Program-made: the position numbers and the translations under genes
Shown: positions 10,260 through 35,321 of the stretch, piece by piece
How the letters are laid out: each line of letters begins with the position of its first letter
How positions within the stretch are numbered: position 1 is the stretch's first letter
Origin: an uncultured bacterium
GTDB taxonomy: Bacteria; Desulfobacterota; GWC2-55-46; DRQE01
NCBI GenBank assembly: GCA_965371305.1
Contig: CBDUXY010000001.1
Location: 1-45,102 of the forward strand
Direction: 5' to 3'
Length of the DNA: 45,102 nt
Notes under the pieces: generated by a model
What the model was told of the DNA's origin: nothing
The model's input: only the letters and a program-made list of their open reading frames with translations
The model's database searches: none

Positions 10260-10728
10260 AGAAAGCTGTTTTTAATCTTTTCCTGTTCTTACCGGGCCTT
10301 TCTTTCACCTCACTCCCGCCTTTATGTCAGGCGTGAAGACGCCTCTCTATGACTCTTTTACTTTTGTGCGTAATTCTGCCCTGGTTTTCTCCTGTGTTTT
10401 CTCCTGCGTTTTACTTTGGCACGCAAGTTCCCAATTCTGAAAAACCAACGTTAAACAATCGTTATTGCACGTCCCTACCCCCTTTATCGGATAGAAATGT
10501 ATTGAACTTCAGGTGGCAGATATGATATTTTAATAATATTTGTTTTTGTAGGCAGTTTTATACAAAATCGGCGTAAATTCCTGTATGTAAGCTTTTTTGC
10601 GTGTGTAATGATAGTAAAACACTACCTCAAAGCTTTATTACGGAGTATCAGAAGCAATTATGTTGGAAAAACCTCTGAGCCAGGATATGTGGCAATAGAC
10701 TCGCTATGCGGGTTAATGGAGTGTGTGT

Positions 10729-12162
10729 GTGAAAAAGCAAACCGGATTGCTGTGTTTGTTGTTTGCCGTGCTTGTGTTGGTTGCTTCATGTGCCGAGTTT
10801 ATTGATGAATTGCCATCTCGAATTCAGGTCACAGGCGAACCAAGACTTTTGTTTTACATCCATTCCACCTCCAGCTCTCCGGTGGACATAGATTTTACGG
10901 TTATGGAACTGGCGGTAAAGAACTCATCCGGCGTGTGGATTACCGCGCTTGACGAGCCTGTCACCTTACGTTCCGTCTCCCTGTCAAACTCTCAAAGGCT
11001 TCTTGGTGAGGCCTTCGTTCCTGAAGGCCTATACAGCGAGTTAAGGATGACTGTGTCCGCCGCTTCTATAAGAAGCGGCGTTTCCAGGGCAAGTCTGAGT
11101 GTTGCCGACCAAGGTGTGCTTGAACCGAACTCGATTGAACTTAATTTAACAACCGGTCAGTCCACTGTCGTAACTCTTGCCTGGAACCCCAATGAATCGA
11201 TTGAAAAAAGGGTCTTGTTTAATCCTGACATTAAAGTCGATCCTCAGAGGTCTTCTGCAAGGGAGCTGATAATGTTTGTTTCCAACAGTGGCTCTGATTA
11301 CGTCTCCGTGCTTGATATGAGCCTTGAAAGGGTTACTGCCGCCGTGAGTGTTGGTAGTCGCCCTATGGGCATGACGCTTAATGCTACGGGAGATACGCTC
11401 TATGTGGTTAACAGCGCGTCAAGGACCATATCTGTGGTTGACCCCATACACTTCGAGCAAAGAGATTTGATAGACATTGCCGGAGGCATTGAGCCGACCG
11501 ACGTAGTGTTTGTGCCGGACGGGGAGGACTCTATCGAGGGCAAGCTCTATGTTACAAACCGGATGTCAAACGATATAGCCGTTATAAGCACGTATACGAG
11601 AAGGCTTTTAAAGATGCTTCAGGTCGGTCTCGCCCCGTCTCATATTGTTGCAAACCCTGAGAGAAAAGAAGTCTATGTGACAAATGAGTTCTCAAACACA
11701 GTGAGCATAATAAGCACTGTTGATGATACGGTTACCGCGAATCTGCGGGTGAATGGACCTCCTGTAGGGCTTGCCCTTAACAGCGACGACAACATGCTCT
11801 ACGTTTTTATAGAGGCCTCTAACTCGGTAGCTGTACTGTCTACTATAGACAGGGTGCTTGTTGAAACCATAGCGCTTGAGCAGGGACCGGCCAGGGGTGT
11901 CGTTGGGTTCGATAATAGACTTTTTGTAGGCAGTAGTTCTTCAGATACCATGACGTTTTTGACCCGGGATAACGTTATTATCAGAACGATTGATTCGGGC
12001 GCAGACCCTTCCGGGTTCTCCGTGGATGAGATAAGAAATAGACTATATGTGACTAATACCGGAGACGATACCGTCTCTGTCGTGGACCCGCTTGGGCATA
12101 GAATTGTTAAAGACCTGCAGGTGGGCAAGGGCCCTTACGGCATCGTGCAGATGGAAAGATGA
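10729..12162 (+). CDS. Lipoprotein: DUF4382-like N-domain plus YVTN-family beta-propeller
   Basis: GGAG lies 7 nt before GTG 10729 (GTG 10723 is too close to it). Lipobox LVASC. Repeated ~40-aa units (DTLYVVNSASRTISVVD, KLYVTNRMSNDIAVIS, EVYVTNEFSNTVSIIS, MLYVFIEASNSVAVLS, RLYVTNTGDDTVSVVD). Confidence 0.75.
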   Translation: MKKQTGLLCLLFAVLVLVASCAEFIDELPSRIQVTGEPRLLFYIHSTSSSPVDIDFTVMELAVKNSSGVWITALDEPVTLRSVSLSNSQRLLGEAFVPEGLYSELRMTVSAASIRSGVSRASLSVADQGVLEPNSIELNLTTGQSTVVTLAWNPNESIEKRVLFNPDIKVDPQRSSARELIMFVSNSGSDYVSVLDMSLERVTAAVSVGSRPMGMTLNATGDTLYVVNSASRTISVVDPIHFEQRDLIDIAGGIEPTDVVFVPDGEDSIEGKLYVTNRMSNDIAVISTYTRRLLKMLQVGLAPSHIVANPERKEVYVTNEFSNTVSIISTVDDTVTANLRVNGPPVGLALNSDDNMLYVFIEASNSVAVLSTIDRVLVETIALEQGPARGVVGFDNRLFVGSSSSDTMTFLTRDNVIIRTIDSGADPSGFSVDEIRNRLYVTNTGDDTVSVVDPLGHRIVKDLQVGKGPYGIVQMER

Positions 12163-12163
12163 T

Positions 12164-14272: not shown

Positions 14273-14444
14273 AACAAGGGGGCTTAACCTTGCGGGGCGC
14301 GTGCGCGTTACAAATTGTATGATGGCTTTTTATGACTGAATGTTTTGCTTTTTTTACTGAGTCTGCCACAGGGTTTGCTCAACGCAGCACTTGTATTATG
14401 TGCTACTTGATAACAGGAAAAGAATTGAAAAAAGGAGCGTAATA

Positions 14445-15050
14445 TTGTATAATTTTAAGTATATGAAGCGCACTTCAGTTACTTCAGTATTATTCTTGTT
14501 AATTGTAGGGTTATGTCTTTTGTCAGGATGTACCGGGCGGGCGGTCAGGTACGTTAACACCGAGGCCGATTTTTCGTACATCAAAAATGTCGCTATCTTG
14601 CCGTTTAATAATCTTACTTCTGATAAGTTTGCAGGGGAGAAGGTGCGTTCGGCAATGATGGTCGATTTATTATCGAGAAATGTCTTTGAAGTAACAGAGC
14701 AGGGCGAGGTAAGTAAGGCCCTGACACAGGTTTTGAGGGCTACAGGCGCAAGTGAAGGTATGGTTGTGGACTTTGATAGGGAGACCATTAAGCTTCTGGG
14801 CGAGCGTCTGGGCGTTCAGGCAATTATAGTTGGAAGCGTTGAGGAGTTTCACGGCTCAAGGGGAGCGTCTGGAGGTGAGGTGACACTTTCCGTAAGGATG
14901 CTCGATACCAGTTCCGGTGTAGTGCTCTGGCAGGTAAGGATAACCGTCCTGGGAGCAAGCGTGGCCAGAAGGATTATAGGTTTTGAGGCCAGGGACAAGA
15001 GTATCTTAACGCAAAAGATTGTAAAACGCGCGCTTGACACACTCCTGTAG
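14445..15050 (+). CDS. CsgG/LpoB/TolB-N-like periplasmic lipoprotein (paralogue 1)
   Basis: AGGAG lies 7 nt before in-frame TTG 14445; the alternative is ATG 14463. Lipobox LLSGC. Motif VAILPFNNLT..(~70 aa)..GVQAIIVGSVEEF is shared with 15175, 17537 and 3737. Confidence 0.7.
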   Translation: MYNFKYMKRTSVTSVLFLLIVGLCLLSGCTGRAVRYVNTEADFSYIKNVAILPFNNLTSDKFAGEKVRSAMMVDLLSRNVFEVTEQGEVSKALTQVLRATGASEGMVVDFDRETIKLLGERLGVQAIIVGSVEEFHGSRGASGGEVTLSVRMLDTSSGVVLWQVRITVLGASVARRIIGFEARDKSILTQKIVKRALDTLL

Positions 15051-15062
15051 ACGCGAGGTGCC

Positions 15063-15145
15063 GGCCAAGGGGGGGCAAGTGGAGTAAAGGTGGGCCAAGG
15101 GGAGTAAAGGTGGAGCCAAGGGGAGCCAAGGTGGGCCAAGGGGAG
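15063..15145 (+). repeat. Imperfect tandem repeat built on GCCAAGGGGAG / GGAGTAAAGGTGG (G-tract-rich, Shine-Dalgarno-like)
   Basis: Four copies of GCCAAGGGG(A/G)G plus one GCCAAGGTGGG variant, and two ~20-bp units GGAGTAAAGGTGGRGCCAAG. The block ends 30 nt before ATG 15175. Confidence 0.7.
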
Positions 15146-15174
15146 TTTTAGAACTTTATCGGGGAATCTTCAAT

Positions 15175-16887
15175 ATGAGTTATAAAGACATTTCAAATTT
15201 TATTAAACATGCAGCTTGCTGCAAAAAGTTCATAAAGGCTGCGTCACGTTCTGGAGGATATATTTCCACCGTTGGTATCCAGGTGGTTTTATTTGCAGCG
15301 TTCCTGGCGTTTTTAACGCTTATCTATCCCTCCTCAGCAACGGCCTCCGGCATAGCCACCCTTTATACAAACGAGTATACCTACAATAACGGTAATGGTA
15401 ATAGTAACGGCGCCAAGGGATATAACAGCAATGGTAACGGCAACGGTATGTCCGTTCCCTATCCGGTCGTTATTAAGAGCATTGCCATACTTCCTCTGGA
15501 AAACCTGTCTGAAAACAAGTTCGCAGCCGATATAATCAGAGAAGACATAAAAAAAGAATTCAAGAGTAAAGGTCTCGTATACATTGCCGACGACTCGAGT
15601 GTCGAGCGTTTCCTTGCCAAAAGGCGTATTCGCTATACAGGGGCCATGAAAAGGGTCTCGGTAAGGGAGATGGGTAAGGTCATGGGTGTGGACGCCGTAC
15701 TGGTCGGTTCTGCAAATTACTTTAGCGCTATTGGCGAGCGGGTGATAGTCGGGATCAGTTTAAGAATTTTAAGCACGCTTGACGGAAGCATCATGTGGGC
15801 CGATAATCTTACCTATACAGGCCATGACTTCGAGGGTTTGCTCGGCCTTGGTATTATCAGGTCAACCGACATACTTGCGGCCCTTGTTGTAAAGGACCTT
15901 GTCAAGGGCATAGAGGACAGGTTTTTTATAAGGGAGAGTGCCTTCAGCCCCTTTGAGATAGAAAGGGTCATAACCTATCCGACCATAGGGAGTGCAAAGG
16001 ATAAGCGGGAGATCAGGGTGGAGTTCCTCCCTCTTGCCGATGAACCGGAAAAGGTGCTCGTCATAATAGGGGGAGAAGAGGTCGTGCTTGAGCGTGTACG
16101 CGACAACAGTTACAGGGCGGATATATACGCCCCTGAAAAAGAGGGCACGTATATAGTGGACGTTATTGCCATGAATCAGTCTGACACCCCGTTTCCGTTT
16201 TCCGCGGTAGCTAAGATTATAGTTGACAATACACCTCCCAAAGTCTCTCTTAACGTTGACAAGAGGCTTTTTTCGTATGCCAAAAAAGGCGGATACGTCA
16301 TGTTTGAAGCAAAACTCCTGAGTTACGAGGAAATCGATGAATGGAAGGTGCAGATCATTGACTCTGAAGGCAACACGGTTCGCAGCGATAAGGGTTTTGG
16401 CGGCATCCCCCAAAAAATGATATGGAGGGGGGAGACAGACAACAACAATACTTACGTAAAGGATGGGGTCTATACCCTTAAACTCATTGTAATGGATACT
16501 GCCGGCAATGAGACGGAGGTCAGCGACGAGATAGTGGTAAAGAGCCGTCCTCCTGAGATAAGTATAAACGTTGACGTTGTTGACCGGAAAGTCATATTCA
16601 GTTTTGAATATGACAAGAGTGAGCCTATAGATAACTGGCTTGTCGCCATCAAGGACAGGGAAGGTAATACTATTAAGATAGCCAAGGGTGATAACAACCT
16701 TATCCCTGAGGTGTTTGAGTATGAAATAGTAGATGAATTCGATTTAAGGGAGCTGGTCTTCAATATATTGGTGGAAGATAAGGCCGGTAATATTTTTAAG
16801 ATGAGAAAGACCATACCGTCGCTTTTCTCAAGGAAAATACCTCTTGCTGATTTGATGGGAAAAGACCGCGTGTGGCAGGACTTTTAG
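15175..16887 (+). CDS. CsgG/LpoB/TolB-N-like exported protein (paralogue 2) with C-terminal Ig-like (FlgD-Ig-type) repeats
   Basis: TM or signal segment, then a Gly/Asn low-complexity run (NNGNGNSNGAKGYNSNGNGNG). Domain motif IAILPLENLS..GVDAVLVGSANYF. Three Ig-like modules (e.g. GVYTLKLIVMDTAGNETEVSDEIVV). Confidence 0.65.
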   Translation: MSYKDISNFIKHAACCKKFIKAASRSGGYISTVGIQVVLFAAFLAFLTLIYPSSATASGIATLYTNEYTYNNGNGNSNGAKGYNSNGNGNGMSVPYPVVIKSIAILPLENLSENKFAADIIREDIKKEFKSKGLVYIADDSSVERFLAKRRIRYTGAMKRVSVREMGKVMGVDAVLVGSANYFSAIGERVIVGISLRILSTLDGSIMWADNLTYTGHDFEGLLGLGIIRSTDILAALVVKDLVKGIEDRFFIRESAFSPFEIERVITYPTIGSAKDKREIRVEFLPLADEPEKVLVIIGGEEVVLERVRDNSYRADIYAPEKEGTYIVDVIAMNQSDTPFPFSAVAKIIVDNTPPKVSLNVDKRLFSYAKKGGYVMFEAKLLSYEEIDEWKVQIIDSEGNTVRSDKGFGGIPQKMIWRGETDNNNTYVKDGVYTLKLIVMDTAGNETEVSDEIVVKSRPPEISINVDVVDRKVIFSFEYDKSEPIDNWLVAIKDREGNTIKIAKGDNNLIPEVFEYEIVDEFDLRELVFNILVEDKAGNIFKMRKTIPSLFSRKIPLADLMGKDRVWQDF

Positions 16888-16917
16888 TCCACCTGGTGGG
16901 TTTAGCCCACTGGTGGT
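16888..16917 (+). repeat. REP-like hairpin pair, copy c (CCACCTGGTGGG TTTAG CCCACTGGTGG + TTTT)
   Basis: Starts right after the stop codon. It can fold as a ~9-bp stem followed by T4, so it may act as a weak terminator or attenuator. Confidence 0.45.
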
Positions 16918-16954
16918 TTTAAATGTCAGGTAGACTCTGATTTATCGGTATTGA

Positions 16955-17068
16955 GTGAAGAGACCTGGGCCGGGTGAAGAGATCTGGGCCGGATGAAGAG
17001 ATCTGGGCCGGATGAAGAGATCTGGACTGGATGAAGAGTCCTGGACTGGGTGAAGAGTCCTGGGCCGG
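16955..17068 (+). repeat. Tandem array of 6 x 19 bp (RTGAAGAGNNCTGGRCYGG)
   Basis: Units at 16955, 16974, 16993, 17012, 17031 and 17050. Neighbouring units differ by 1-2 nt in a stepwise series. The three central units contain the AGATCT palindrome. The 19-bp period is not a multiple of 3 and there is no ORF. Confidence 0.9.
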
Positions 17069-17109
17069 GTCAAAGGTAGTTCTGTTAATTCCCAAATAAA
17101 TAGTTAGTT

Positions 17110-17216
17110 TCGCATGGCGGGCTACAAGCCCACCATGTGGGTATAATGCCCCGTAGCTGGGCTCAGGTTTTTTTCAACATTTTCCTTTTGATGCCTGGTA
17201 GCTTTCTGCGAGGTAG
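17110..17216 (+). repeat. REP/BIME-like intergenic repeat, copy d (full mosaic: hairpin A, hairpin B, GCCCCGTAGCTGGGCTCAGG, tail)
   Basis: CGCATGGCGGGCTACAAGCCCACCATGTGGGTATAATGCCCCGTAGCTGGGCTCAGG..TTTTGATGCC..GCTTTCTGCGAGGTAG. It matches the modules of copies a, e, f and h. Confidence 0.6.
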
Positions 17217-17476
17217 TTTGCTGGTTCCGGTGGTTATAGATGTTCTGCTGGTTTTTTTTGACTTTTTGCGGAAATTGGTGAAATAAATATGGAGATTATT
17301 TCTGCCGGTGTTATAATGCCGGTATTATAAATATGCACTATGTCTGCTCGCGTGGTGGTTGTGTATGGACGCGTGGCATTGTTTCGGAGTTTGTTCCTTT
17401 TTTAAAGGCTTCGCTTGCAGCAGTTAGCTGGAGATACTCCTGTTTGCATTAGTAAGGGTCCGTCAATTAATTGCAA

Positions 17477-17507
17477 GGGCGGTGCGAGGGGGGAGGGGCG
17501 CAAGGGG
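17477..17507 (+). other. G-tract block GGGCGGTGCGAGGGGGGAGGGGCGCAAGGGG (G4-capable)
   Basis: Four or more G3-6 tracts on the coding strand, 30 nt upstream of ATG 17537. Confidence 0.35.
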
Positions 17508-17536
17508 ACTTTTTAAGTTAAGAGGTTTCATGGGGC

Positions 17537-18109
17537 ATGAAGGCTTCCCGTATTTTTAAAATTGTATTTGTTTGCCTGTGTCTTGCTGCTTTTGTGGGTG
17601 GTTGTTCCGGCAGACAAAGGGCGCGTCGTTCGGAACTCGAGGGCCTGAGGCTTAAGAAGATCGTGGTGCTTCCGTTCCACAACATAAGCGGCAGGAACGA
17701 TGCAGGCAAGATAGTTGCAGACACCTTCGTGTCGGAACTTTTTAAAAACAAGAATTACCGTGTTGAAGAGCCGGGTAACGTGATGCAGTTCATGATTCAT
17801 GAGCGCATTGATACTATCGGGGAGATGGAAGTGCAGATGATAAGGATCCTCGGTATGCGGCTTAACGCAGATGCGGTTATTGTCGGCACTGTCGAGGAGT
17901 TTGATGACGGACTGAGATCAGGAGGGGTTCCGACTGTTTCCGTGACTGCAAGGATGGTGGATTCAAGGACCGGGCGCGTTGTGTGGGCCGGTTATAAGAA
18001 AAGAAGAGGAGATGAATATACTATTATTTTCGGAATTGGTTCTGTAAGGAGCGCTCCGGCGCTTGTGCAGAAAGTTGCTGCCGAATTGATAGATACTATA
18101 ACATGGTAA
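17537..18109 (+). CDS. CsgG/LpoB/TolB-N-like periplasmic lipoprotein (paralogue 3)
   Basis: Lipobox FVGGC. Motif IVVLPFHNISG..(~65 aa)..NADAVIVGTVEEFD. The stop overlaps the next start (ATGGTAA). Confidence 0.7.
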   Translation: MKASRIFKIVFVCLCLAAFVGGCSGRQRARRSELEGLRLKKIVVLPFHNISGRNDAGKIVADTFVSELFKNKNYRVEEPGNVMQFMIHERIDTIGEMEVQMIRILGMRLNADAVIVGTVEEFDDGLRSGGVPTVSVTARMVDSRTGRVVWAGYKKRRGDEYTIIFGIGSVRSAPALVQKVAAELIDTITW

Positions 18110-19686
18110 AAGAGATTCCTTCAAAAATGGCGGTAAAAGAATTATCAACAATAAAGACATTCAATGGCGAGTTGGGAAAAAACGCATGTTTTACGAATTG
18201 TCTGCGACAAGCGGTTTCCGTTAAAAAAATTGCCTCCTGCGCTGTTACGGTGTTTTTTGTCGCAGTGTTTTTTTTATGCATGCAAGGCCAGGCTCACAGC
18301 GCCTGGCCTTTTGGGAAAGCGACCGATGTGGAATCTGCTGATGTAGAAGCTACCGGGCAAGCATACGTCGCCAGGGTTGGTGACAGGGTTATAACGACCG
18401 AATTTTTCTTAGACAAAGTGAACAAGCTCCATATGAGCGAGCGCGTTGGCAGGGTGCTTAAAGAGAGCAAGGGCAAGGGGTTTGTCAGGGAAGATTACAG
18501 GAAGTTCCTGGATGAACTTATCAATGAAAATTTGATGGAAATAGAGGCCTTAAGACTTGGCCTTGAGTCGAATCCAGTGGTGCTGAGCAAGATGCATACT
18601 TACAAGATTAACCTCTTTCTAGGGCGTCTTAGAAGGGAAGAAGTTACGGGCAAGGTTATTGAGGTGTCTGAGAGTGAGCTGATTGAGGAGTATAGACGCA
18701 AACAGATTAAAGAAGGCAAGAAGCCTGCCGCTGATGATGACGAGGCAATGAAGGAGTCCTTGCTTCTCCCTGGCGCGCACCTGAGAAAGGGCTTTAAGCG
18801 CGACATAATTGCTCGTAAAAGGGCTTCACTTGAAAAGAAGTTCTTTAAGAGCCTGCGTAAAAAAGCCAGGGTGAAGATATATAAGGACGCCTTGATGCAG
18901 GTCTCCTCTGATATGGCAGACCCGTTAGGCACAGTTGTTGCAAAAGTAAACGGCGAGTACATAAGCGCATCGGAAGTGCTCAGGCTCATTGTAAATTCAG
19001 GCGGTGATAAGGCAGGTGTTGAAAAAAGGACTAAGATAGCGGAAAAAATTATTCTGCACAAGTTGCTTGACCGCGAGTCCTTAAGGCGCGGTTACGAGAA
19101 AGACCCTGTTTTTAAGACTATGATAGCCCAGTACAAGCGCGAGCGCCTTATTGACGTATTTAAAAGAAAAGTCGTTTTGCCGCTTGTAAAGGTTGAAGAA
19201 AAAGATATTTTGAACTATTATAATGATAATCAGGATGAATTCAAGCTGCCCGAGGTCTTCAGGCTTTTCTTGATCTCTACGAGCAGTGCCGATGATACGA
19301 ACAGTATAGCAAGGGAGCTTGAAAGGGGCGCGGACTTTGAGTACCTGGCAAAGCTTAAGTCAAATGACGGGTCCCGCAATGACGGTGGCGACGTTGGGTG
19401 GATGTCTGGCGGCGCTTTCCCGGCCTCCGTGCGTAAACAGCTCAATGAGGCAAAAAAAGGAGATTTAATCGGCCCCTTTGCCATGAGGAACAGGTATTAT
19501 GTGGTCCGTTATCACGAAACCAGAGATGGTGGATCCAAGCCCCTTAAAAAAGTCAGGAAGGGCATAGATAAAAAGCTTGGTACGCAGATGTACAAGGACA
19601 GATTGTCTGAATATATGGTTCGTTTGAGAGAGATGCAGTTTGTTGAGATTAACGAACAAGAACTTGTCAGGATTTCCGCTAAATAG
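18103..19686 (+). CDS. SurA/PrsA-like peptidyl-prolyl cis-trans isomerase (PpiC/parvulin type), membrane-anchored or secreted
   Basis: Hydrophobic segment VTVFFVAVFFLCMQGQAHSA. Long helical chaperone-like region. C-terminal parvulin domain (FRLFLIS..GGDVGWMSGGAFPASV..GDLIGPFAMRNRYYVVRYHE). The start may be ATG 18127. Confidence 0.8.
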   Translation: MVKEIPSKMAVKELSTIKTFNGELGKNACFTNCLRQAVSVKKIASCAVTVFFVAVFFLCMQGQAHSAWPFGKATDVESADVEATGQAYVARVGDRVITTEFFLDKVNKLHMSERVGRVLKESKGKGFVREDYRKFLDELINENLMEIEALRLGLESNPVVLSKMHTYKINLFLGRLRREEVTGKVIEVSESELIEEYRRKQIKEGKKPAADDDEAMKESLLLPGAHLRKGFKRDIIARKRASLEKKFFKSLRKKARVKIYKDALMQVSSDMADPLGTVVAKVNGEYISASEVLRLIVNSGGDKAGVEKRTKIAEKIILHKLLDRESLRRGYEKDPVFKTMIAQYKRERLIDVFKRKVVLPLVKVEEKDILNYYNDNQDEFKLPEVFRLFLISTSSADDTNSIARELERGADFEYLAKLKSNDGSRNDGGDVGWMSGGAFPASVRKQLNEAKKGDLIGPFAMRNRYYVVRYHETRDGGSKPLKKVRKGIDKKLGTQMYKDRLSEYMVRLREMQFVEINEQELVRISAK

Positions 19687-26547: not shown

Positions 26548-27915
26548 ATGAAGAGATTATTGCAAATAACCCTGCTTGTCATGGCAGTTGCCGGGTTTAC
26601 CTTTCTGATGGCAACACCGTCGGAAGCGCTTCACAAGAACCCGAACAACACGCTTGTATGTGGCGGTTGTCACACCATGCACAATAGTCAGGCTAATTTA
26701 TCACTTGGAGGAAGCAATGGTACGGCCAGCAATGGTGGTGCCTTGATACTCTTAAGAGGTAATGTCACAAGCAGATCACAGATTCATAACCTGTGTTTGC
26801 AGTGTCACGGAAGTAACGGTCAGCAGTCAGTGGCTCTCTTCCCTGACGAGTTTGCCGGAGGTGACGAGCACCCGGCTCCAAAGGTATATATAGACGGCCA
26901 GGGTGGAGCAGGTAACGGTTTCGACGGCGCAACGTTCGGCAGCATCGGCGCAGGCGGGGACTTCTCCTCTGAGCTTACCGGTGATAGTGACGGATGGGCT
27001 GCTGATGATACTGACGGTACTGACGTCGGTGTTGGACAGGGACACAGTCTCGGTCTGGTCAACCCGCGTCCTCCTGGATTTGATAACGATGAAGACAGTT
27101 CGGGCGCAACAAGCCTTGACTACTTTACCTGTACGTCATGTCACGACCCGCACGGTGCGTTTAATGGCCCAACTGCACTTGCCAACCAGTTCCGTAACCT
27201 CAGGACCGTACCGACAGGTTCTCTGGAACCTGGAGACATAATACTCAACACCGCTGTCAGGAGTTATGTTGGATACGGCAGTTGTCAGGGTAACGGGGAT
27301 GACTTTGAGACCGGTATAACCAACGGTTCGGATGCAACCGCTATCTGGCCTGTATACAAACTCGGTGAGGCTACACACGTCACTGGAAATGGCTCAAGTG
27401 CATGTGACAGTGCAGGCGGAAACGTTAACTCTTACGGTGTTAGCACCGGCGCTGCAACAGACGGTATAGCCAACTGGTGTGCGGCATGTCACGATTACTG
27501 GCATGAAGGTAACGAGGCCACTAACGGCCCTGTTGCAGCAGGTCCTGGCGCTGACTGGAGAAGGCATCCTGTTGACAGGCTTCTCTATGACGGCAGCAGG
27601 CTTTCAGGCGGAGGTGTCACCATTATAGACGCTGCAAACTACTATGACACTAACCTGGTTTTAGGTGGCGGTAGGTTGCCGATTGCTTCGACTATAGCGC
27701 TTGGTTCAGACCCGATCTACTATATGGAGGTTTCTGGCACAGACGAGTTAACCAGTAAGGTTTTCTGTCTGTCCTGTCACTTCGCTCATGGCGGTCCGAA
27801 CTACGACCTTCTGAGGTGGGATTATCTCTCAGACGTCGATACTGCCACTACGCAGATACAGACAGGCAACGCCATAGCATCTAACGTTGGTTGTCAGCTC
27901 TGTCATAACAGGTAA
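26548..27915 (+). CDS. Secreted hexahaem c-type cytochrome, OmcS-like (candidate nanowire subunit), paralogue 1
   Basis: AAGGAGG lies 6 nt before the ATG. Signal ..ATPSEA. Six CXXCH in OmcS-like order with matching local motifs: CGGCHTMHNS, CLQCHGSNG, GGDF, CTSCHDPHG, CAACHDYWH, RRHPVD, CLSCHFAHGG, and C-terminal CQLCHNR. 455 aa (I recall OmcS as about 430 aa). Confidence 0.75.
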   Translation: MKRLLQITLLVMAVAGFTFLMATPSEALHKNPNNTLVCGGCHTMHNSQANLSLGGSNGTASNGGALILLRGNVTSRSQIHNLCLQCHGSNGQQSVALFPDEFAGGDEHPAPKVYIDGQGGAGNGFDGATFGSIGAGGDFSSELTGDSDGWAADDTDGTDVGVGQGHSLGLVNPRPPGFDNDEDSSGATSLDYFTCTSCHDPHGAFNGPTALANQFRNLRTVPTGSLEPGDIILNTAVRSYVGYGSCQGNGDDFETGITNGSDATAIWPVYKLGEATHVTGNGSSACDSAGGNVNSYGVSTGAATDGIANWCAACHDYWHEGNEATNGPVAAGPGADWRRHPVDRLLYDGSRLSGGGVTIIDAANYYDTNLVLGGGRLPIASTIALGSDPIYYMEVSGTDELTSKVFCLSCHFAHGGPNYDLLRWDYLSDVDTATTQIQTGNAIASNVGCQLCHNR

Positions 27916-27956
27916 TACGAGATAGTATATACATAGCATGTAGGCATAGAGAAAAA

Positions 27957-27986
27957 GGGGAAGGCATTAGCCTTCCCCTTTTTTTT
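27957..27986 (+). terminator. Strong rho-independent terminator
   Basis: 9-bp stem GGGGAAGGC/GCCTTCCCC, ATTA loop, T8 tail, with an A5 run upstream. Confidence 0.9.
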
Positions 27987-28102: not shown

Positions 28103-29788
28103 ATGAAACGTCAAAGAAAATTAAAATTCTTACAGAAAATCTTCCGATACGGATTTCTTTTCATTTTATTTTATCTTTTCTGTGCCTTTACGCCAACTGA
28201 TGCGCGCGGCGTATCAGAGCGGGCAGAGGCGTTTGTTTTTCCTGTCGGGGCAGAGTCTTTTACCAGGCTTGCCTCACTTGAAGATCAAGCCGGTCCATCT
28301 GCTTTTCAAACACCTTTAGACGCGGCAGAGCAGGAAGAAGGCGTAACGGATAAATCCGTTCCCGGGGAAGTAATCACGGATAAGCCAATTCCGGACGAGT
28401 CAGTCCGGGATGAAACGCCGGAGAAACTACCTGAGCAAGCAGAAGACGACAGTTCGTTAATTAACCAGCCGTCGTCTTCATCAACCGGGCCAGGGCCGGG
28501 CATTGACGAAGCACAGGAAGGTGACTCTGTTGAAATAGACGTAAAGGATCCTATAAGTGACAAGTCAAAAGATCCATCTGTTGAGCCTTTCGAGCTCCCA
28601 CCTCCTCCTGAAACCGAGTCGGAAGACAGTTATTACGAAGAAGGTCTTGATGAGGAGATCGGGACAGAAGAAGACCTGATAATTGACGAAGATATAACAG
28701 AGGAGATAATAGAACCTGAGCCTGACGAAGTCATACCGCAGGAGCCTGAAACTCCCAAACCGGAGTTAGAGCCTGCCAGGCAAGATGAGGGTGCGGGCGA
28801 CCCCTCGCCTCCCGTAGACGCTGAGGTAGTTGGCGACGGGGATGTTAAGGGTGGCGAAGCGGCAGAACCTGACGAAGTTGAGCCAGGCGCCGTCGACAGT
28901 GCTGAAACGGAAGAGGACGAGGAGGAGCGAAAAGGGCCGATTGATATCAGGCTTAAATATGTCTTTGGTATTAATGCAAAATTAAGCGGCAAGCAACTTT
29001 CCTGGGTTGACCAGATAGTAATTGACTCGAACAACAATGAAATCTATTTGCTTGATTCCGGCAATAAAAGGATTGTCATAACCGACAGCGAAGGTGGTTA
29101 CCTGTATCATTTTAACTTTGGAATTGCCGGCATAAAGTACCCTCTTGCCATGGACGTTGACACTGCAACCGGCGATATATATATTGCAGAGGGTAAAAGA
29201 ATAGTAGTGCTTGATTACAGAGGGAAGTTCATTAGAAACCTGGAACTCTCCAGGATTCCGAATGTAGAGAAGATAAAGATACAGTCGATGGCTTTGTTGC
29301 GCACTGAAGATGACGAGCTTAACATTTATATAGGCGACGTCCAGTATAAGCGTATTATCGTTATAAGCAGTGATGGCGAACTTGTGCGTGTTTATGAAGA
29401 CAAGTTAAAGGGTGTTGCAGTTAATATAGGGGACCTCTATGTTGATAATGACCGTATTATGTGGCTTGATGTGGCACGTTTTGCCGTCTTTCATCTAAGC
29501 AGCGATGGAAAGGAGTTCAAAGGGTTTGGCAGGGTTTCAAGCCTGTTAGGTGGCTTCAGTATGCCTTCGGATATTGCCGTAGACCTGCAGCGAGAGCGCG
29601 TGATCGTGGTTGATGGAAATAGGATGATGGTCATTATCTTTGACATGGATGGCAACGCTCTGTTTGAATTCGGAGGACCTCTTATATTTAGTTGGCCAAG
29701 GGCGGTTGCAGTGGACGAGTTTGGGCGAATCTATGTGGCTGATAACAGCGGCATTATACGCGTGTTTGAGGTAGTTATTATGGAGTAA
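28103..29788 (+). CDS. NHL-repeat beta-propeller protein with ~230-aa acidic Pro/Glu/Asp-rich linker (NHL-2)
   Basis: N-terminal TM or signal segment (FRYGFLFILFYLFCAFTPTDA). Low-complexity acidic region (..EPEPDEVIPQEPETPKPELEP..). Six NHL blades (IYLLDSGNKRIVITD .. RIYVADNSGIIRVFE). Confidence 0.8.
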   Translation: MKRQRKLKFLQKIFRYGFLFILFYLFCAFTPTDARGVSERAEAFVFPVGAESFTRLASLEDQAGPSAFQTPLDAAEQEEGVTDKSVPGEVITDKPIPDESVRDETPEKLPEQAEDDSSLINQPSSSSTGPGPGIDEAQEGDSVEIDVKDPISDKSKDPSVEPFELPPPPETESEDSYYEEGLDEEIGTEEDLIIDEDITEEIIEPEPDEVIPQEPETPKPELEPARQDEGAGDPSPPVDAEVVGDGDVKGGEAAEPDEVEPGAVDSAETEEDEEERKGPIDIRLKYVFGINAKLSGKQLSWVDQIVIDSNNNEIYLLDSGNKRIVITDSEGGYLYHFNFGIAGIKYPLAMDVDTATGDIYIAEGKRIVVLDYRGKFIRNLELSRIPNVEKIKIQSMALLRTEDDELNIYIGDVQYKRIIVISSDGELVRVYEDKLKGVAVNIGDLYVDNDRIMWLDVARFAVFHLSSDGKEFKGFGRVSSLLGGFSMPSDIAVDLQRERVIVVDGNRMMVIIFDMDGNALFEFGGPLIFSWPRAVAVDEFGRIYVADNSGIIRVFEVVIME

Positions 29789-30110: not shown

Positions 30111-30635
30111 TTGATTCCTATGCTTCTTGCGACAAGAGATTTTTATTCACGTTTTGAACTGGTATTTTTCCTTGTAATATTGCTTGTACTTGTTTTTGCC
30201 GTACATAGGCGAAACGTAGTATGGGCCGACGAGGTTAGTAGTTGGCGAAATGCCAGGCTTGCTTCACCCGGAAAGGTCAGGCCGATCAATAATTATGCCA
30301 ACGCCCTTAGAGACGACGCAGGGGATCCGCGTTCCGCAATAAAGGAGTACAGAGAGGCGATAAGGGTTGCCCCTCTTCAGGTGCCCCCGAGGTCCAATCT
30401 GGCTGTGGCGTATTTAATGCTTGGTATGTATGATGAGGCCGTAATTGAGCTTGAAGTGGCAGTTAGTATGATGCCGGACCATCATGTGCTTCACGGTAAT
30501 CTGGGCTATGCGTATTTGAAAAAACGGAGGTGGAAGATGGCAAAAACCGAGTTCGAGACAGCGCTCAAGCTTAAGCCCGGTTACAGACTTGCCATAGAGA
30601 ATCTAAAGTGGCTTGAGCTTGGTGGGCTTGTTTGA
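30111..30635 (+). CDS. TM-anchored TPR protein (TPR-1)
   Basis: Start is TTG 30111 or ATG 30120. One N-terminal TM helix, then the conserved RRNVVWADEVSSW..SPGKVRPINN motif and TPR repeats. Confidence 0.7.
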   Translation: MIPMLLATRDFYSRFELVFFLVILLVLVFAVHRRNVVWADEVSSWRNARLASPGKVRPINNYANALRDDAGDPRSAIKEYREAIRVAPLQVPPRSNLAVAYLMLGMYDEAVIELEVAVSMMPDHHVLHGNLGYAYLKKRRWKMAKTEFETALKLKPGYRLAIENLKWLELGGLV

Positions 30636-31405
30636 GCGCCCTTGCCACAGATACCGGTACCGGACGTCTTAACGTTCACGCCGTGGAATTTGTGTTCCTT
30701 ATCCTTGCGTTAATTGCCTGTGTTGTTGTCGGTTATATCAGGAACGGGTACTGGGCCGATGAGTTCAGCATCTGGACCGATACGGCCCTTAAATCCCCTG
30801 AAAAGGTAAGACCTCTTAACGAAGTCGGCAGACGTTATATGGACAGAGGCGAGTTCGACCTTGCGCTTGAATACCTGAGTAAAGCTTCTTCGGCAAATTA
30901 TTATTACGCCCCTGCTCACAGTAATAAGGGGGAGATTTATTATCAGCTTGGTCGTTGGAGCAGGGCGCAGGATGAGTTAGAGCTTGCAATCAAGTTCGGA
31001 CCTCCTTACGAGGACCTGCACAGGAGCCTCGGGTTTGCCTATATGAGAACCGGTCAGGTCGGTGCGGCAATAAAAGAATTTAAAAAGGCAGTTTTACTTA
31101 TGCCACGACACGAAAATTTTATAGATTCTGTAAAGCTTGCATATAATAACGAGGGTTTTTTCTATTTCGATAGGCGGGATTTTAAGAGTGCCCTTGTGCT
31201 TCATGAGCTTGCCGCCTCTCTTGACCCAGGGTACGCCAACGCCCGGTACGGCCTTGCCCTTGCTCATGAGGGGCTTGGTACGAATGAAAGGGCGCTTTAT
31301 TACTGGCGTGAATACCTGAGACTTGCGCCGCAGGAGAGCCGTGAGTGGCGTGCCCTTGCCAGGGCCCATATAGAAGAGTTATCGGCTCGCAAGGAGTCGC
31401 AATGA
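30632..31405 (+). CDS. TM-anchored TPR protein (TPR-2)
   Basis: The TTG start overlaps the upstream stop (TTGA). TM helix, then IRNGYWADEFSIW..SPEKVRPLNE and TPR repeats. Confidence 0.7.
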   Translation: MSALATDTGTGRLNVHAVEFVFLILALIACVVVGYIRNGYWADEFSIWTDTALKSPEKVRPLNEVGRRYMDRGEFDLALEYLSKASSANYYYAPAHSNKGEIYYQLGRWSRAQDELELAIKFGPPYEDLHRSLGFAYMRTGQVGAAIKEFKKAVLLMPRHENFIDSVKLAYNNEGFFYFDRRDFKSALVLHELAASLDPGYANARYGLALAHEGLGTNERALYYWREYLRLAPQESREWRALARAHIEELSARKESQ

Positions 31406-32115
31406 ACGTTTCCCTTGCCGCAAGGATAGAAGGGGTTGTGCTTTGCGCAATATGTGTTTGCGTCCTGATTATGTCGTTTGCACGTAACAGGGTTTGGGAG
31501 GAGGAGTTTACCCTGTGGATGGACGTTTCCGTTAAAAATCCGGCCTCTGTCAGGTCTTACAACAACATAGGTTCGGCTCTGATGGATAAGGCGCGTTTTG
31601 CCGAAGCAGTGCCGTATTTAATAAAGGCGGTTGCAGCCGACCCGAGGCGTCAGGTGCCGCACTTCAACCTTGCCCTCTCTTATATGCGAACTGGCAGGGT
31701 CGGGCTTGCCGAAATAGAGCTTTTAAAGACGCTTGAAGTTAGCGACGTATTAAAGAAGGGGCACTACGGTCAGGGGTCACTTTCGCAGACATATGACTTA
31801 AAGTCACACGGTAACCTCGGCAATATATTTACGTTCAAGGGGGAGTTTGAAAAGGCTCTCTATCACTTTGAAAAGGCAATTGCGCTTGCACCGGATAATG
31901 CCTCTCTTCATTACAACCTGGGGCTTGCTTACAAGAAGATGGGGCGTATGGACGAAGCAGCCGCCCGGTTCAGTACCGTGCTCAAGTTGTCTCCTGATGA
32001 CAAGGGGGCTCGCTGGAATTTGATGCAGATTCAGCGCGGTAGAGATTTGGTGGAACCTCAAAAAGGCGGGCGCAGACAACATGGGGTCCGGCAGGGGACA
32101 AACAGGCCGGAATGA
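31402..32115 (+). CDS. TM-anchored TPR protein (TPR-3)
   Basis: AAGGAG lies 5 nt before ATG 31402, with an ATGA overlap on the upstream stop. TM helix, then ARNRVWEEEFTLW..NPASVRSYNN and TPR repeats. Confidence 0.7.
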   Translation: MNVSLAARIEGVVLCAICVCVLIMSFARNRVWEEEFTLWMDVSVKNPASVRSYNNIGSALMDKARFAEAVPYLIKAVAADPRRQVPHFNLALSYMRTGRVGLAEIELLKTLEVSDVLKKGHYGQGSLSQTYDLKSHGNLGNIFTFKGEFEKALYHFEKAIALAPDNASLHYNLGLAYKKMGRMDEAAARFSTVLKLSPDDKGARWNLMQIQRGRDLVEPQKGGRRQHGVRQGTNRPE

Positions 32116-32122
32116 GCAGGAT

Positions 32123-33025
32123 ATGAAATTTTATACATATATGTTTTTAAATGTTTTTTTGGCGGCTTTTTTAGCCATGCCTTCGTTTGCAGCGCCAGAG
32201 GCGGAGTCTTCCTCTCCGTTACCTTCTCTTAGGCCAAGGTACAAGTTCTCCATAACCAGGTTCTACAAGGACGCGTTAAAGAACCCTATCGGGATTTTTA
32301 TGGATAACGCGAACGAAGAGTTTTACGTTGCGGATAGAGACCGTTCTGAGATATTTGTCTTCAACACGGACGGTTCGCCGGTCTTTAGATTTGGCGACAG
32401 AGAGACCCTCTCAGGCATAAACGACCTGGTGGTTCGTGACGACCTTATTTACATCTCGCGCGAGGGCAGGCCCTTTATAGACGTCTTGAACCTGAGAGGA
32501 GTTTTTCAAAGAAGGCTTGATCCCGGTATAGTCGATTTCAAACCCGGTAAGATGGATATTGACGAGGCCGGCAATATTTACGTAGTGAATAAAAAGCTTG
32601 GTAACTGTGTTGTCATAGACAGCAATGAGGAGTTTGTTCTTACGATTGGAGGCGGTCTGAAGTCTCTTTCAGGTGTGAGCGCCGGTGGTGGGTTTGTCTA
32701 TTTCGTGTCCCCGTTTTATGGTAGGATAATACATGTTTTTAACGATCGTGGCGAACATATAATGAACTTTGAGGGGCTTGAAGGGCAAGGTGGCACGCTT
32801 GGCCTGCCTGTCGGAATAAAAGTTGACGGGGCAGGCAATATCTGGATAGCAGACACTATTAAAGGTATTGTCATTTATGATAAAAACGGTAAGAAAACAG
32901 GCAGTTTCGGCTATTCAGGGCCGTTTTATCAAAGGCTCAAATTGCCTGTTGAGATTGACTTGAGCAACTCTGGTATGATATATTTAATAGATAAGGGTAA
33001 TAAACGTATAAGTGTGTTTAAATGA
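32123..33025 (+). CDS. Secreted NHL-repeat six-bladed beta-propeller protein (NHL-3)
   Basis: Signal MKFYTYMFLNVFLAAFLAMPSFA. Six blades (FYVADRDRSEIFVF .. MIYLIDKGNKRISVF). Confidence 0.8.
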   Translation: MKFYTYMFLNVFLAAFLAMPSFAAPEAESSSPLPSLRPRYKFSITRFYKDALKNPIGIFMDNANEEFYVADRDRSEIFVFNTDGSPVFRFGDRETLSGINDLVVRDDLIYISREGRPFIDVLNLRGVFQRRLDPGIVDFKPGKMDIDEAGNIYVVNKKLGNCVVIDSNEEFVLTIGGGLKSLSGVSAGGGFVYFVSPFYGRIIHVFNDRGEHIMNFEGLEGQGGTLGLPVGIKVDGAGNIWIADTIKGIVIYDKNGKKTGSFGYSGPFYQRLKLPVEIDLSNSGMIYLIDKGNKRISVFK

Positions 33026-33061
33026 AAAAAAAGGGCGTTAGAAGCTCTTTTGAGGTAAAAT

Positions 33062-34402
33062 ATGGGGGAAAATTTTAATGAATTACTCCGTAGCTTGCTA
33101 CAGGGTATCAAAAGGAAATATGATCCTAAAAACCCCGCAACAAGCTACGCGAAATTAACCCCGCCATCTGGGATTAAAAACATGAATTACTGCGTGCGCG
33201 TCCTTGGTGGTTGTTTTTTTCTAATTATTTTTTTATTTTTTTCCTCTTTCATCACCAATGCCGGTGAATACCACGCGACAAGTGAAGAGACCTATTCGGG
33301 CACGGAGACCCTTGCCTGCTCACAGTGCCATACCATGCACGGCTCTCAGGGAGGCACTGACTCTCTTTTTTATGTCGGAGGCGGGCCGAATCTTAAACTC
33401 TTGAGGGCTTCATCCATACTTAACCTGTGTCTTTTCTGTCACGGTGACACCAACCCGGGTCCTGTTGAGTGGGATAGCAGAACTCCGCCTCAGATAGTAG
33501 ATAACAAGCAGGGACCTGCTGCGGCAAGTTACGTGCCTTCCGGTGGGGACTTTATGGATAGAACCGTTGTAAATGAGGCCAACCGCCACAGCTTGGATAA
33601 AGACGTTTCGGCCGCAATCGATGAGCCGCCCGGATACAACGGCACATGGAGCGACGTTGTCACCCGTTACAGTCCTAAATTTAACTGCCTTTACTGTCAT
33701 GACCAGCACGGCAACAGTAATTTCAGGAATCTCAGGTACGACCCCGGAACTCCTGAAAACGATAATCGTAACGACCCTGACCGTGTTGTGATTACTTTTG
33801 CGTACGACCCGGTGTCCGACCCCGACGACAATACCAAGGACGTTAATTACTGGGGCCCTGGGGCGGACACGCCGGTTGGTAACAAATTTACAAGAACGAA
33901 CGTCAGGTTTCGCAGGGCGCCGCTTGATACAGATTTGCCCGTAAGGGGCATATCGGCTTTTTGCGGTAAGTGCCATATGGATTTTTGGGGCGAGAGCGGG
34001 GATGCAAACGTCGGTGGTTCTATTTCGGGTGGACTCGGTGCCGGGGATGACAATTCCGCCTCAGACAGTCCCTGGGTAAGACACCCTGTTGACGATATAA
34101 GTATCGGGCTTGCAAATTCAAACCTCCACGCAGACCTTTCAAACTGGAGCGGTATCGCCGCAACCGCCAAGGCCCGCCACATAGACCCGACAGACACGGG
34201 TGATTTCGGCGAGGACCAGCCTTTTTGCCTCTCCTGTCATTACGCCCACGGCGGCGGCAACCCGAACTTCGCGGGAGTCTCTGAGTACGACCACAGTAAC
34301 CTTGCCATGAAGGACAGCACGGGATTGGTGAATATAGATCCTTCTTATGATACCGCAAGCGGCAGGATTAGAAACGTCTGTCAGCAGTGCCATAACCAGT
34401 AA
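33062..34402 (+). CDS. Hexahaem c-type cytochrome, OmcS-like, paralogue 2
   Basis: GAGGT lies 5 nt before ATG 33062. The alternative ATG 33182 (MNYCVRVLGG..) would remove a 40-aa N-terminal extension. Motifs: CSQCHTMHGS, CLFCHGD, GGDF, CLYCHDQHG, CGKCHMDFW, VRHPVD, CLSCHYAHGG, and C-terminal CQQCHNQ. Confidence 0.75.
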   Translation: MGENFNELLRSLLQGIKRKYDPKNPATSYAKLTPPSGIKNMNYCVRVLGGCFFLIIFLFFSSFITNAGEYHATSEETYSGTETLACSQCHTMHGSQGGTDSLFYVGGGPNLKLLRASSILNLCLFCHGDTNPGPVEWDSRTPPQIVDNKQGPAAASYVPSGGDFMDRTVVNEANRHSLDKDVSAAIDEPPGYNGTWSDVVTRYSPKFNCLYCHDQHGNSNFRNLRYDPGTPENDNRNDPDRVVITFAYDPVSDPDDNTKDVNYWGPGADTPVGNKFTRTNVRFRRAPLDTDLPVRGISAFCGKCHMDFWGESGDANVGGSISGGLGAGDDNSASDSPWVRHPVDDISIGLANSNLHADLSNWSGIAATAKARHIDPTDTGDFGEDQPFCLSCHYAHGGGNPNFAGVSEYDHSNLAMKDSTGLVNIDPSYDTASGRIRNVCQQCHNQ

Positions 34403-34471
34403 CCACCTTCTCTAAAGGCTTGGAATCCCTGCCAGAGCAAAATATTTTTTAGTGAGGTAAGACTATAAATC

Positions 34472-35317
34472 ATGAGAGTTCTTTTATTTATTAAAACAGC
34501 GCTTCAGGGCGTTTTGTTCGTTTTGCTGATTGTTTCGGTATCCACTGCATTTGCCGCAGCCGACCATTTGCACGGCAAGGGGCATGAAGGCTTAGCGGTT
34601 TCACAACACAGGGCACAGGACGGAGCAGGGCAAGCGAGAAGCGTCGCCAGGGCAAAGGCAGAGTTAAAAAGGCTCGAACTTGTCTATAAACAGGGCGGAG
34701 GCACGTGGCAGGACTTAAACAGGCTTGGTGTCCTCTACCTTCATGAGAGAAACTATACCGAGTCGATTAAAATGCTGCGTCAGGCAACGTTAAGAAAGCC
34801 AGGGCATCAGAAAGCACACGAATCGCTCGGCATGGCCTATTTTAGAAACGGTGAGTTTGACATGGCAGCCAAATCCTGGGGCAGGGCAAGTGAGATTGCG
34901 CCGCAAGTAGCTTATTTAAAGATGCTTGTCAAGACTGCTCGGGAAAAATCTGGGCTTTTAAAAGAGGCAGAGAAACTTAAAAATGATCTGAAAAAACCAG
35001 GTGCGCCTTTTGAAAAACGCCGTGATCTTGCAATCCTTTACGCCCGTACCGGTAGGCTTGACCTGGCAACTTTTGAGCTTTTAAAGGCAATAGAAAAGAA
35101 CCCCGAGGTGGCCGGACTGCACGATATCCTTGCACGTATTTATGCAAGGATAGGGGATTACAAGAGGGCCGTCGCCACTGAGAAGATCGCAGTGAAACTT
35201 AGTCCGGATAACGAGACCTTCAGAAAAACCCTTGCCGAGATGGAAAACCTCTCCAGCGCCATTGCAAAGGGTGAGTTTCACGATAGAGGTGGTTCGGAAG
35301 AAAAGCCTTCAGAATAA
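34472..35317 (+). CDS. Secreted TPR protein (TPR-4)
   Basis: Signal ..VSTAFA, followed by TPR repeats (YLHERNYTESIKMLRQA.., ARIYARIGDYKRAV..). Confidence 0.7.
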   Translation: MRVLLFIKTALQGVLFVLLIVSVSTAFAAADHLHGKGHEGLAVSQHRAQDGAGQARSVARAKAELKRLELVYKQGGGTWQDLNRLGVLYLHERNYTESIKMLRQATLRKPGHQKAHESLGMAYFRNGEFDMAAKSWGRASEIAPQVAYLKMLVKTAREKSGLLKEAEKLKNDLKKPGAPFEKRRDLAILYARTGRLDLATFELLKAIEKNPEVAGLHDILARIYARIGDYKRAVATEKIAVKLSPDNETFRKTLAEMENLSSAIAKGEFHDRGGSEEKPSE

Positions 35318-35321
35318 CACA

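Follow-up and report, generated by a model that had tools for sequence, protein, structure and literature searches.

An operon-embedded OmcS-like hexaheme cytochrome as a candidate second nanowire subunit in an osc-like island of an uncultured bacterium

The gene considered here, OmcS2, encodes a hexaheme cytochrome related to the Geobacter nanowire subunit OmcS and is located in a 45,102-nt stretch of DNA from an uncultured bacterium of the Desulfobacterota (contig CBDUXY010000001.1 of assembly GCA_965371305.1, positions 1 to 45,102 of the forward strand), referred to as a whole as the window. In its longest form, the gene (33062..34402, 446 aa) runs from ATG 33062 to a TAA stop codon at 34400-34402 on the + strand, which also carries the cytochrome, NHL, TPR and osc-like genes and the signals located below. 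It contains six CXXCH heme motifs, namely CSQCH (aa 86, 33317..33331), CLFCH (aa 123, 33428..33442), CLYCH (aa 209, 33686..33700), CGKCH (aa 301, 33962..33976), CLSCH (aa 389, 34226..34240) and, at the C-terminus, CQQCH (aa 440, 34379..34393). An earlier description of the same DNA made from its letters alone (the original prediction) had proposed a six-motif skeleton; the total of six is correct, but only five of the motifs were listed, CLFCH at 33428-33442 having been overlooked. The GGDF and RHP motifs that it also reported are found at aa 161 and aa 340, respectively. The predicted mature cytochrome (33263..34399) begins with GEYHATSEE (G68 of the long form; N-terminal peptide GEYHATSEETYSGTETLA) and comprises 379 aa, with a mass of ~41 kDa without hemes and a pI of 4.8.

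Database searches returned 105 homologues of OmcS2, nearly all of them unnamed proteins of 380-450 aa from metagenome-assembled genomes (MAGs), and in an alignment of 80 of them invariance extends to all six CXXCH motifs and to exactly six histidines outside the motifs. In long-form numbering, the latter are H71 (GEYH), H93 (TMH, directly after heme motif 1), H176 (NRH), H216 (CHDQH, a distal histidine after heme motif 3), H341 (RHP) and H396 (CHYAH, a distal histidine after heme motif 5), and together with the motifs they are predicted to provide the 12 ligands that bis-His coordination of six hemes requires. When OmcS2 is aligned jointly with Geobacter OmcS, OmcT and OscC, as well as with the other OmcS-like protein of the window (paralogue 1, hereafter OmcS1) and its type-1 clade, each of the 12 ligands falls in an equivalent position in all of them. 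Specifically, the CXXCH motifs at aa 86, 123, 209, 301, 389 and 440 align to C34, C72, C165, C264, C353 and C427 of OmcS, whereas H71, H93, H176, H216, H341 and H396 align to H27, H41, H135, H172, H282 and H360 of the OmcS precursor, H93 thus corresponding to His16 of the mature protein. In OmcS it is this His16 that reportedly acts as the ligating residue and binds heme 5, a finding attributed to work by Wang and colleagues in 2019. In OmcS filaments, a histidine from the adjacent subunit serves as a ligand to one heme, according to PMC9473688, in which OmcS and OmcE are also described as sharing a heme arrangement.

The OmcS2-type family additionally shows histidine changes of its own. H356 (34127-34129, NLHAD) and H411 (34292-34294, YDHSN) are at least 90% conserved within it, and their equivalents are absent in OmcS1-type proteins and in Geobacter OmcS, OmcT and OscC. 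Conversely, the histidine after heme 4 (CHxDxH), which is kept by type 1 and the Geobacter proteins, is replaced by W in OmcS2 (CHMDFW). These changes may point to altered contacts with a metal or ligand, or to another partner.

The relation to OmcS was reached by profiles only, as single-sequence phmmer searches of the PDB returned no relevant match for either paralogue. A profile of 80 homologues matched 6ef8_A (OmcS) with E 1.3e-19 over essentially the whole chain (profile 49-396, chain 8-404), and a local profile of 24 type-2 sequences matched OmcS with 47 bits (E 1.6e-11). Weak profile similarity, limited to the N-terminal part with the first three CXXCH motifs, was found to 9YUQ, a putative multiheme cytochrome of 218 aa (E 4e-5), and to OmcE (7TFS; E 0.0026); both proteins are smaller (218-232 aa) and resemble only this part of OmcS2, in agreement with the heme arrangement that OmcS and OmcE are reported to have in common (PMC9473688). 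Pfam and NCBIfam gave generic multiheme models only (e.g., Paired_CXXCH_1), and no OmcS-specific model among them matched. An AlphaFold2 (AF2) model of OmcS2, built without hemes, reached a pLDDT of 80 and a pTM of 0.83, and its sole Foldseek match in the PDB was again 6ef8_A (E 8.8e-4, probability 0.97, TM-score 0.39, rmsd 11.6 Å); a low TM-score is expected from a loop-rich fold modelled without its hemes. Membership of OmcS2 in the OmcS superfamily, which comprises ~2,400 clusters at 50% identity, is well supported. Its original description as an OmcS-like hexaheme paralogue agrees with the full-length match to 6EF8, the sole Foldseek match and the alignment of 12 out of 12 ligand positions.

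Compared directly with OmcS of Geobacter sulfurreducens (GSU2504; 6EF8/6NEF), a hexaheme subunit of extracellular nanowires, OmcS2 has the six CXXCH motifs in the same order and the same six distal histidines, including the His16 equivalent (CHTMH) and the histidine just past the mature N-terminus. The two proteins also share GGDF, RHP, a C-terminus that ends just past heme 6 and a Sec signal peptide, and both genes have an NHL gene directly upstream and osc-type genes nearby. They differ in that identity is ~25% and the type-2 profile gives OmcS only 47-74 bits; the mature N-terminus reads GEYH in OmcS2 and FH in OmcS, OmcS2 is acidic (pI 4.8 vs 6.8 in OmcS) and lacks a terminator of its own, and the type-2 family carries the two extra histidines and the W after heme 4.

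The N-terminus of OmcS2 can be read from two start codons. Between ATG 33062 and the alternative start ATG 33182 lies an optional 40-codon extension (MGENFNELLRSLLQGIKRKYDPKNPATSYAKLTPPSGIKN, 33062..33181), polar, net basic and of uncertain translation, which the original prediction had considered a possible cytoplasmic segment. It is followed by the signal-peptide core (33182..33262), delimited by hydropathy and a cleavage-site logo, which consists of MNYCVR and a 21-residue uncharged stretch (VLGGCFFLIIFLFFSSFITNA) and ends at a predicted signal peptidase I (SPase I) site, TNA↓GEYH. The Shine-Dalgarno (SD)-like sequence GAGGT (33052..33056) is located 5 nt before ATG 33062 and yields an anti-SD duplex of -6.9 kcal/mol, compared with -4.0 kcal/mol for ATG 33182. 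Thus, the better SD sequence is at ATG 33062, as had been claimed, and the contrast is real but modest: the median for ATG-start genes of the window is -5.4, and 6% and 24% of internal in-frame ATGs reach -6.9 and -4.0, respectively. The position of the gene points the same way, since most orthologues start 10-45 nt past the stop codon of the upstream NHL2 gene, a range into which the 36-nt spacing of ATG 33062 falls. On account of SD strength and spacing ATG 33062 is favoured, and use of the long form appears slightly the likelier choice. Codon log-odds of the extension (+2.6) are higher than in any of the other five frames and lie in the range seen at the N-termini of real genes, a score that is nevertheless low for coding sequence and is exceeded by 10.7% of intergenic windows. 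None of the 105 homologues aligns to the first 40 residues (query coverage 85-92%), and the upstream peptides of the orthologues are mutually unrelated. Orthologue presequences span 20-52 codons (median ~36), which makes both 27 and 67 codons atypical; a 67-residue presequence would exceed that of every orthologue, ATG 33182 gives an ordinary 27-residue signal peptide, and the OmcS2 family tends towards long, basic n-regions.

Downstream of this variable region, conservation is strict. The uncharged stretch is conserved in homologues (median 19 residues, against 21 in OmcS2), and in a cleavage-site logo of 76 sequences position -1 is A, S or G in 76/76, +1 is G in 76/76 and +4 is H in 76/76, with mostly S, A, L, T or V at -3 and Y at +3 (F in one). 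The +4 histidine aligns with His2 of mature OmcS, and the 6EF8 chain starts at that N-terminus, which is free. OmcS2 is therefore predicted to be exported by the Sec pathway with a cleavable signal peptide. Since the SPase I-type site A↓GEYH (A67↓G68) is invariant, the mature protein would be identical from either ATG, and the choice of start codon is predicted to carry little functional weight. If translated, the extension would form an unusually long signal-peptide n-region that is removed, and no cytoplasmic domain of the mature cytochrome. Hence, the proposal of a 40-aa cytoplasmic extension is borne out in that SD and spacing favour ATG 33062, but the segment is not conserved and is predicted to be lost by cleavage. 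A lipoprotein reading of LGG↓C (aa 48-51) was also considered and rejected, as this sequence lacks a preceding hydrophobic h-region with either start codon and homologues do not conserve it.

OmcS2 is embedded in an operon of NHL and TPR genes. Directly upstream lies NHL2 (32081..33025), a 314-aa beta-propeller gene with a Pfam NHL match, whose TGA stop codon (33023-33025) is in the same frame as ATG 33062 and 36 nt before it, a distance given correctly in the original prediction; a second in-frame stop, TAA at 33056-33058, lies just before the ATG. Downstream, after 69 nt, TPR4 (34472..35317) encodes an exported TPR protein, with a Pfam TPR match and the signal-peptide-like N-terminus implied by its earlier description as a secreted protein. 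Further upstream are three TPR genes (TPR1-3, 30111..32115), of which orthologous loci have 0-4, and NHL1 (28103..29788, 561 aa), with which the accessory operon begins downstream of the OmcS1 terminator. Within 30632-33025 of the window, the TPR2 and TPR3 open reading frames (ORFs) overlap by 61 nt, and those of TPR3 and NHL2 by 35 nt. The true starts of TPR3 and NHL2 are probably internal, at the ATG before NVSLAARIEG in TPR3 and at M15 (MKFYTYMF..., giving a normal signal peptide) in NHL2.

A scan of 185,579 species genomes with the type-2 profile yielded 79 loci, of which the 23 closest (L001-L023) come from MAGs labelled Deltaproteobacteria, Thermodesulfobacteriota or Nitrospinota/Nitrospinae. 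These show a repeated cassette composed of an OmcS1-type gene, NHL1, 0-4 TPR genes, NHL2, an OmcS2-type gene and TPR4. OmcS1 and OmcS2 are both present in 14 of the 15 loci with enough flanking DNA, NHL2 adjoins OmcS2 in 18 of the 23 closest loci, and TPR4 is conserved downstream of OmcS2 in most. The placement of OmcS2 in an NHL/TPR operon, first noted in the window, is in this way an arrangement conserved in many MAGs. Just upstream of OmcS1, the window additionally carries a response regulator with an HD-type (HD_5) domain (24982-26016), which is conserved at this position in L001, L004 and L011 with 66-77% identity; in L011, an OmcS1-type copy lies on either side of it, the two copies having 88% identity.

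OmcS1 (26548..27915, 455 aa) is itself an OmcS1-type hexaheme protein. OmcS2 is collinear with it through the six heme motifs at 27% identity and 26% gaps (E 4e-19), in keeping with the original observation that the inter-heme loops of the two are strongly diverged. The 24 OmcS2 orthologues form a monophyletic clade with 35-67% identity, and across the same genome pairs OmcS2 diverges to an extent similar to OmcS1; judging from these two properties, OmcS2 is a functional, selected gene. In a rough neighbour-joining (NJ) tree, which carries no support values and whose sampling is biased in favour of type-2 relatives, the loci having been retrieved with the type-2 profile, each paralogue groups with its own monophyletic orthologues and the two groups fall in different deep branches: type 1 joins the branch of Geobacter OmcS, and type 2 joins sequences from Planctomycetota and others. 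In line with this, OmcS, OmcT and OscC score 69-75 bits with the type-1 profile and 35-51 bits with the type-2 profile. At least two OmcS-like genes per locus are present in 39 of the 79 fetched loci. In loci L024-L034, L047 and L078, from Planctomycetota and other MAGs, OmcS-like hexaheme genes stand in tandem as pairs or triplets, with ~50-55% identity to one another.

The two paralogues also differ in their expression signals. OmcS1 is preceded by AAGGAGG (-12 kcal/mol), the strongest SD of the window, and followed by a strong intrinsic terminator with a 17-bp stem and a T-run (27949..27986). Of 15 orthologous loci, 13 have an equivalent strong hairpin (-16 to -28 kcal/mol) and T-tract downstream of the type-1 gene (outside the window in L001, L004, L007, L010, L011, L015-L018 and L020-L022), whereas the type-2 gene is almost never followed by such a terminator, and none was found between OmcS2 and TPR4. 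In Geobacter, a terminator with a 15-bp stem follows omcT, and oscC overlaps oscB and oscD. By analogy, the layout of the window pair resembles that of a major subunit and an operon-embedded second subunit. The original prediction had denied OmcS2 both a promoter and a terminator of its own: the latter is indeed absent, in orthologous loci as well, while the absence of the former is neither confirmed nor refuted. A sigma-70-like match (TTGACT, 18-nt spacer, TATATT, extended -10 TG, 10/12) lies within the 3' end of NHL2 (32955..32984), and a second promoter-like match (9/12) within the putative extension (33095..33124), from which a transcript could encode the short form only. Such matches are frequent in this AT-rich stretch (34 found vs 13 expected), which makes them weak evidence. 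Geobacter omcS is riboswitch-controlled. Rfam revealed no riboswitch upstream of either cytochrome gene, including the 530-nt gap before OmcS1. At E<=1, the region 25900-35600 gave only sub-threshold matches on the OmcS1 terminator hairpin, and at the gathering threshold the whole window gave only a tRNA gene, at 5521-5593 (+).

Upstream of the cytochrome pair, the window contains genes similar to those of the Geobacter osc ("omcS companion") operon, which, according to PMC13194489, citing Shen et al. 2025, folds (OscH), secretes (OscE/F/G) and shapes (OscD) OmcS nanowires and contains the OmcS-like paralogues OmcT and OscC. The osc-like biogenesis genes (10723..19686), recognized by Pfam and by BLASTP against Geobacter DNA (L080), encode an OscD-like YncE beta-propeller (10723-12162; E 3e-36 to OscD), an OscE-like protein of 726 aa with no Pfam match (12092-14272; E 1e-19 to OscE), an OscF-like LpoB-type lipoprotein (14391-15050; E 1.5e-13 to OscF), a 570-aa Ig-like protein, a CsgG/GNA1162-like lipoprotein and a SurA-like peptidyl-prolyl isomerase (PPIase; 18103-19686). 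After the PPIase, the block, which extends over 10723-24868, continues with a 26-heme cytochrome (19640-21655), a 15-heme cytochrome, an NHL protein and a 229-aa c7-type triheme protein. Counterparts of OscG, OscH and OscI were matched by domain type only, as the compared Geobacter DNA ended before those genes. OmcS2 lies in an osc-like extracellular-electron-transfer (EET) island. PpcA-type triheme cytochromes are reported to charge OmcS wires and to occur together with OmcS homologues (PMC10954620).

The gene order of the Geobacter locus L080 is a 315-aa protein, omcS, omcT, oscB, oscC, oscD, oscE and oscF. GSU2505 of Geobacter is the gene named "oscA". NHL2 is homologous to the 315-aa protein encoded directly upstream of omcS (L080 8809-9756, BLASTP E 2.8e-14), and an NHL gene followed by an OmcS-like gene is therefore an order common to very distant lineages. 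The original prediction had further likened the window pair to OmcS and OmcT, an analogy that finds no support. OmcT (GSU2503) resembles OmcS2 in being the second hexaheme gene of the OmcS type at its locus, but it lies immediately downstream of OmcS in a tandem with 60% identity and one common terminator, whereas the genes of the window pair have 27% identity, lie 5 kb from each other with a terminator in between and are placed in different deep branches of the NJ tree. OscC (GSU2501) is a closer layout analogue of OmcS2 than OmcT is, being an OmcS-like hexaheme gene that sits amid accessory and assembly genes without a terminator of its own. It is not an orthologue: its score is 73 bits with the type-1 profile and 35 with the type-2 profile (OmcT 51, OmcS 48), it is 53% identical to OmcS, and its neighbours are the spermine-synthase-like OscB and the OscD propeller instead of NHL and TPR genes. 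Several putative filament-forming OmcS homologues, proposed to form nanowires, have also been described in EET clusters of uncultured Desulfobacterota that are syntrophic sulfate reducers (PMC10553843); by their description, to which the comparison is limited, those genes lie in oetABI/omcX cassettes and not in an NHL/TPR and osc-like setting.

OmcS2 is, by this arrangement, the operon-embedded partner of a separately expressed type-1 gene. We propose that it is a second, lower-abundance polymerising subunit alongside OmcS1, forming either a filament species of its own or a minority, base or initiating component, a proposal to which we give about an even chance. The roles named in the original prediction, those of a minor, tip, nucleator or anchor subunit or else of an alternative filament, are possible ones for OmcS2. 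The precursor would be targeted by its N-terminal signal peptide and cut by SPase I at TNA↓GEYH (A67↓G68), and six hemes would be attached covalently in the periplasm. The adjacent NHL and TPR proteins and the products of the osc-like channel and chaperone genes would then handle the cytochrome, whose hemes would stack into an OmcS-type chain through an OmcS-like head-to-tail contact, the conserved CHTMH histidine ligating heme 5 of the neighbouring subunit. Its lower abundance or accessory status is suggested by the SD of -12 and the conserved terminator of OmcS1, as opposed to an SD of -6.9 or -4.0 and no terminator for OmcS2. A more specific form of the proposal, in which OmcS1 and OmcS2 together build a nanowire of two components and OmcS2 serves as a dedicated nucleator, base or adapter or as a co-polymer partner, seems rather improbable; the known structures of OmcS, OmcE and OmcZ filaments each contain one subunit type, and the initiation and anchoring of such filaments are described as still speculative (PMC12307469).

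Several observations weigh against a polymerising OmcS2. Its polymerisation is a proposal drawn from comparative sequence analysis, the single-sequence search found no PDB relative, and the TM-score to OmcS is 0.39. Moreover, the 12-ligand pattern is non-discriminating, as OmcT and OscC, which are not known to form filaments, keep it too. Cleavage at A↓G is likewise a prediction, and the relative expression strengths of OmcS1 and OmcS2 are those suggested by consensus signals only. One locus, L023 (MGRL01000010.1), has NHL2 and OmcS2 and no OmcS1-type gene within 10 kb upstream. Finally, with two extra conserved histidines and without one that is kept by type 1 and Geobacter, type-2 proteins may differ in coordination or in partners. 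The same histidine changes would suit a non-polymerising hexaheme relay, a soluble or outer-membrane-associated monomer that passes electrons between periplasmic carriers (the c7 triheme, 15-heme and 26-heme cytochromes) and the OmcS1 filament or a porin conduit. The location of OmcS2 amid accessory genes, its weaker SD and its missing terminator are consistent with such a role, as is the entry "Periplasmic" for the operon-embedded OscC in the cytochrome SNP table (Table 2) of PMC13194489. We regard a relay as possible but doubtful, given that none of the OmcS ligands, the His16 equivalent included, varies among 80 homologues, that OmcS2 has its own NHL-then-cytochrome module, as does Geobacter omcS, and that osc-like secretion genes adjoin its locus.

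A polymerising OmcS2 could, alternatively, be strictly independent of OmcS1 and form a homopolymeric filament under other conditions or in another redox window, as the original prediction had suggested for its second option, a reading that overlaps with the second-subunit proposal. The complete set of OmcS features, purifying selection that is apparently similar to that on OmcS1, the promoter-like sites upstream of the gene and the L023 locus would all fit; strict independence is nonetheless unlikely in view of the co-occurrence of OmcS1 in 14 of 15 informative loci, the lack of a terminator and an SD that is weak relative to OmcS1, and redox windows are not inferable from sequence. A very unlikely reading follows from the longer start: translated from ATG 33062, with its better SD and 36-nt operonic spacing, OmcS2 could be an inner-membrane-anchored type II cytochrome in which the 21-residue hydrophobic stretch serves as an uncleaved signal anchor behind a 40-aa cytoplasmic tail, and long basic n-regions are usual among orthologues (presequence median ~36 codons). 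Such an anchor is at odds with the invariant SPase I-type site (-1 A/S/G and +1 G in 76/76), with the histidine 4 residues past it, which aligns to His2 at the free N-terminus that mature OmcS has in 6EF8, and with the absence of any counterpart of the extension among homologues. The presence of two hexaheme genes within 7 kb might also suggest a recent redundant duplicate or a decaying copy, similar to OmcS and OmcT. This is contradicted by the data and has next to no probability: identity is 27% compared with 60% for OmcS/OmcT, the orthologues of each gene form a separate monophyletic group in MAGs labelled Deltaproteobacteria, Thermodesulfobacteriota and Nitrospinota, and the OmcS2 ORF is intact with all 12 ligands kept.

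To our knowledge, the osc machinery has been studied in Geobacter only. The window presents an osc-like island in an uncultured lineage labelled Deltaproteobacteria/Thermodesulfobacteriota, with relatives in Nitrospinota MAGs, that pairs two long-diverged OmcS-like subunits. Already known are the presence of OmcS-like paralogues within osc clusters, the wide distribution of such machinery and the occurrence of several OmcS-like genes in uncultured Desulfobacterota (PMC13194489; PMC10553843). Specific to the present locus are a deep type-2 subfamily with two extra histidines, a two-cytochrome cassette fixed in many MAGs and a conserved asymmetry of terminators. If OmcS2 is a second homopolymer or a soluble relay, it extends the known OmcS family in a routine way. 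The start, secretion and anchoring of cytochrome nanowires are described as still speculative in PMC12307469, and the locus supplies concrete candidates for asking whether heteromeric nanowires or a dedicated initiator exist and what NHL propellers do. Additionally, five giant proteins from public metagenomes, P0286 (2523 aa), P0313 (2555 aa), P0324 (1880 aa), P0307 (1879 aa) and P0261 (1757 aa), match the OmcS2-type profile in 3-14 separate segments each and could represent several OmcS-like modules fused in one chain.

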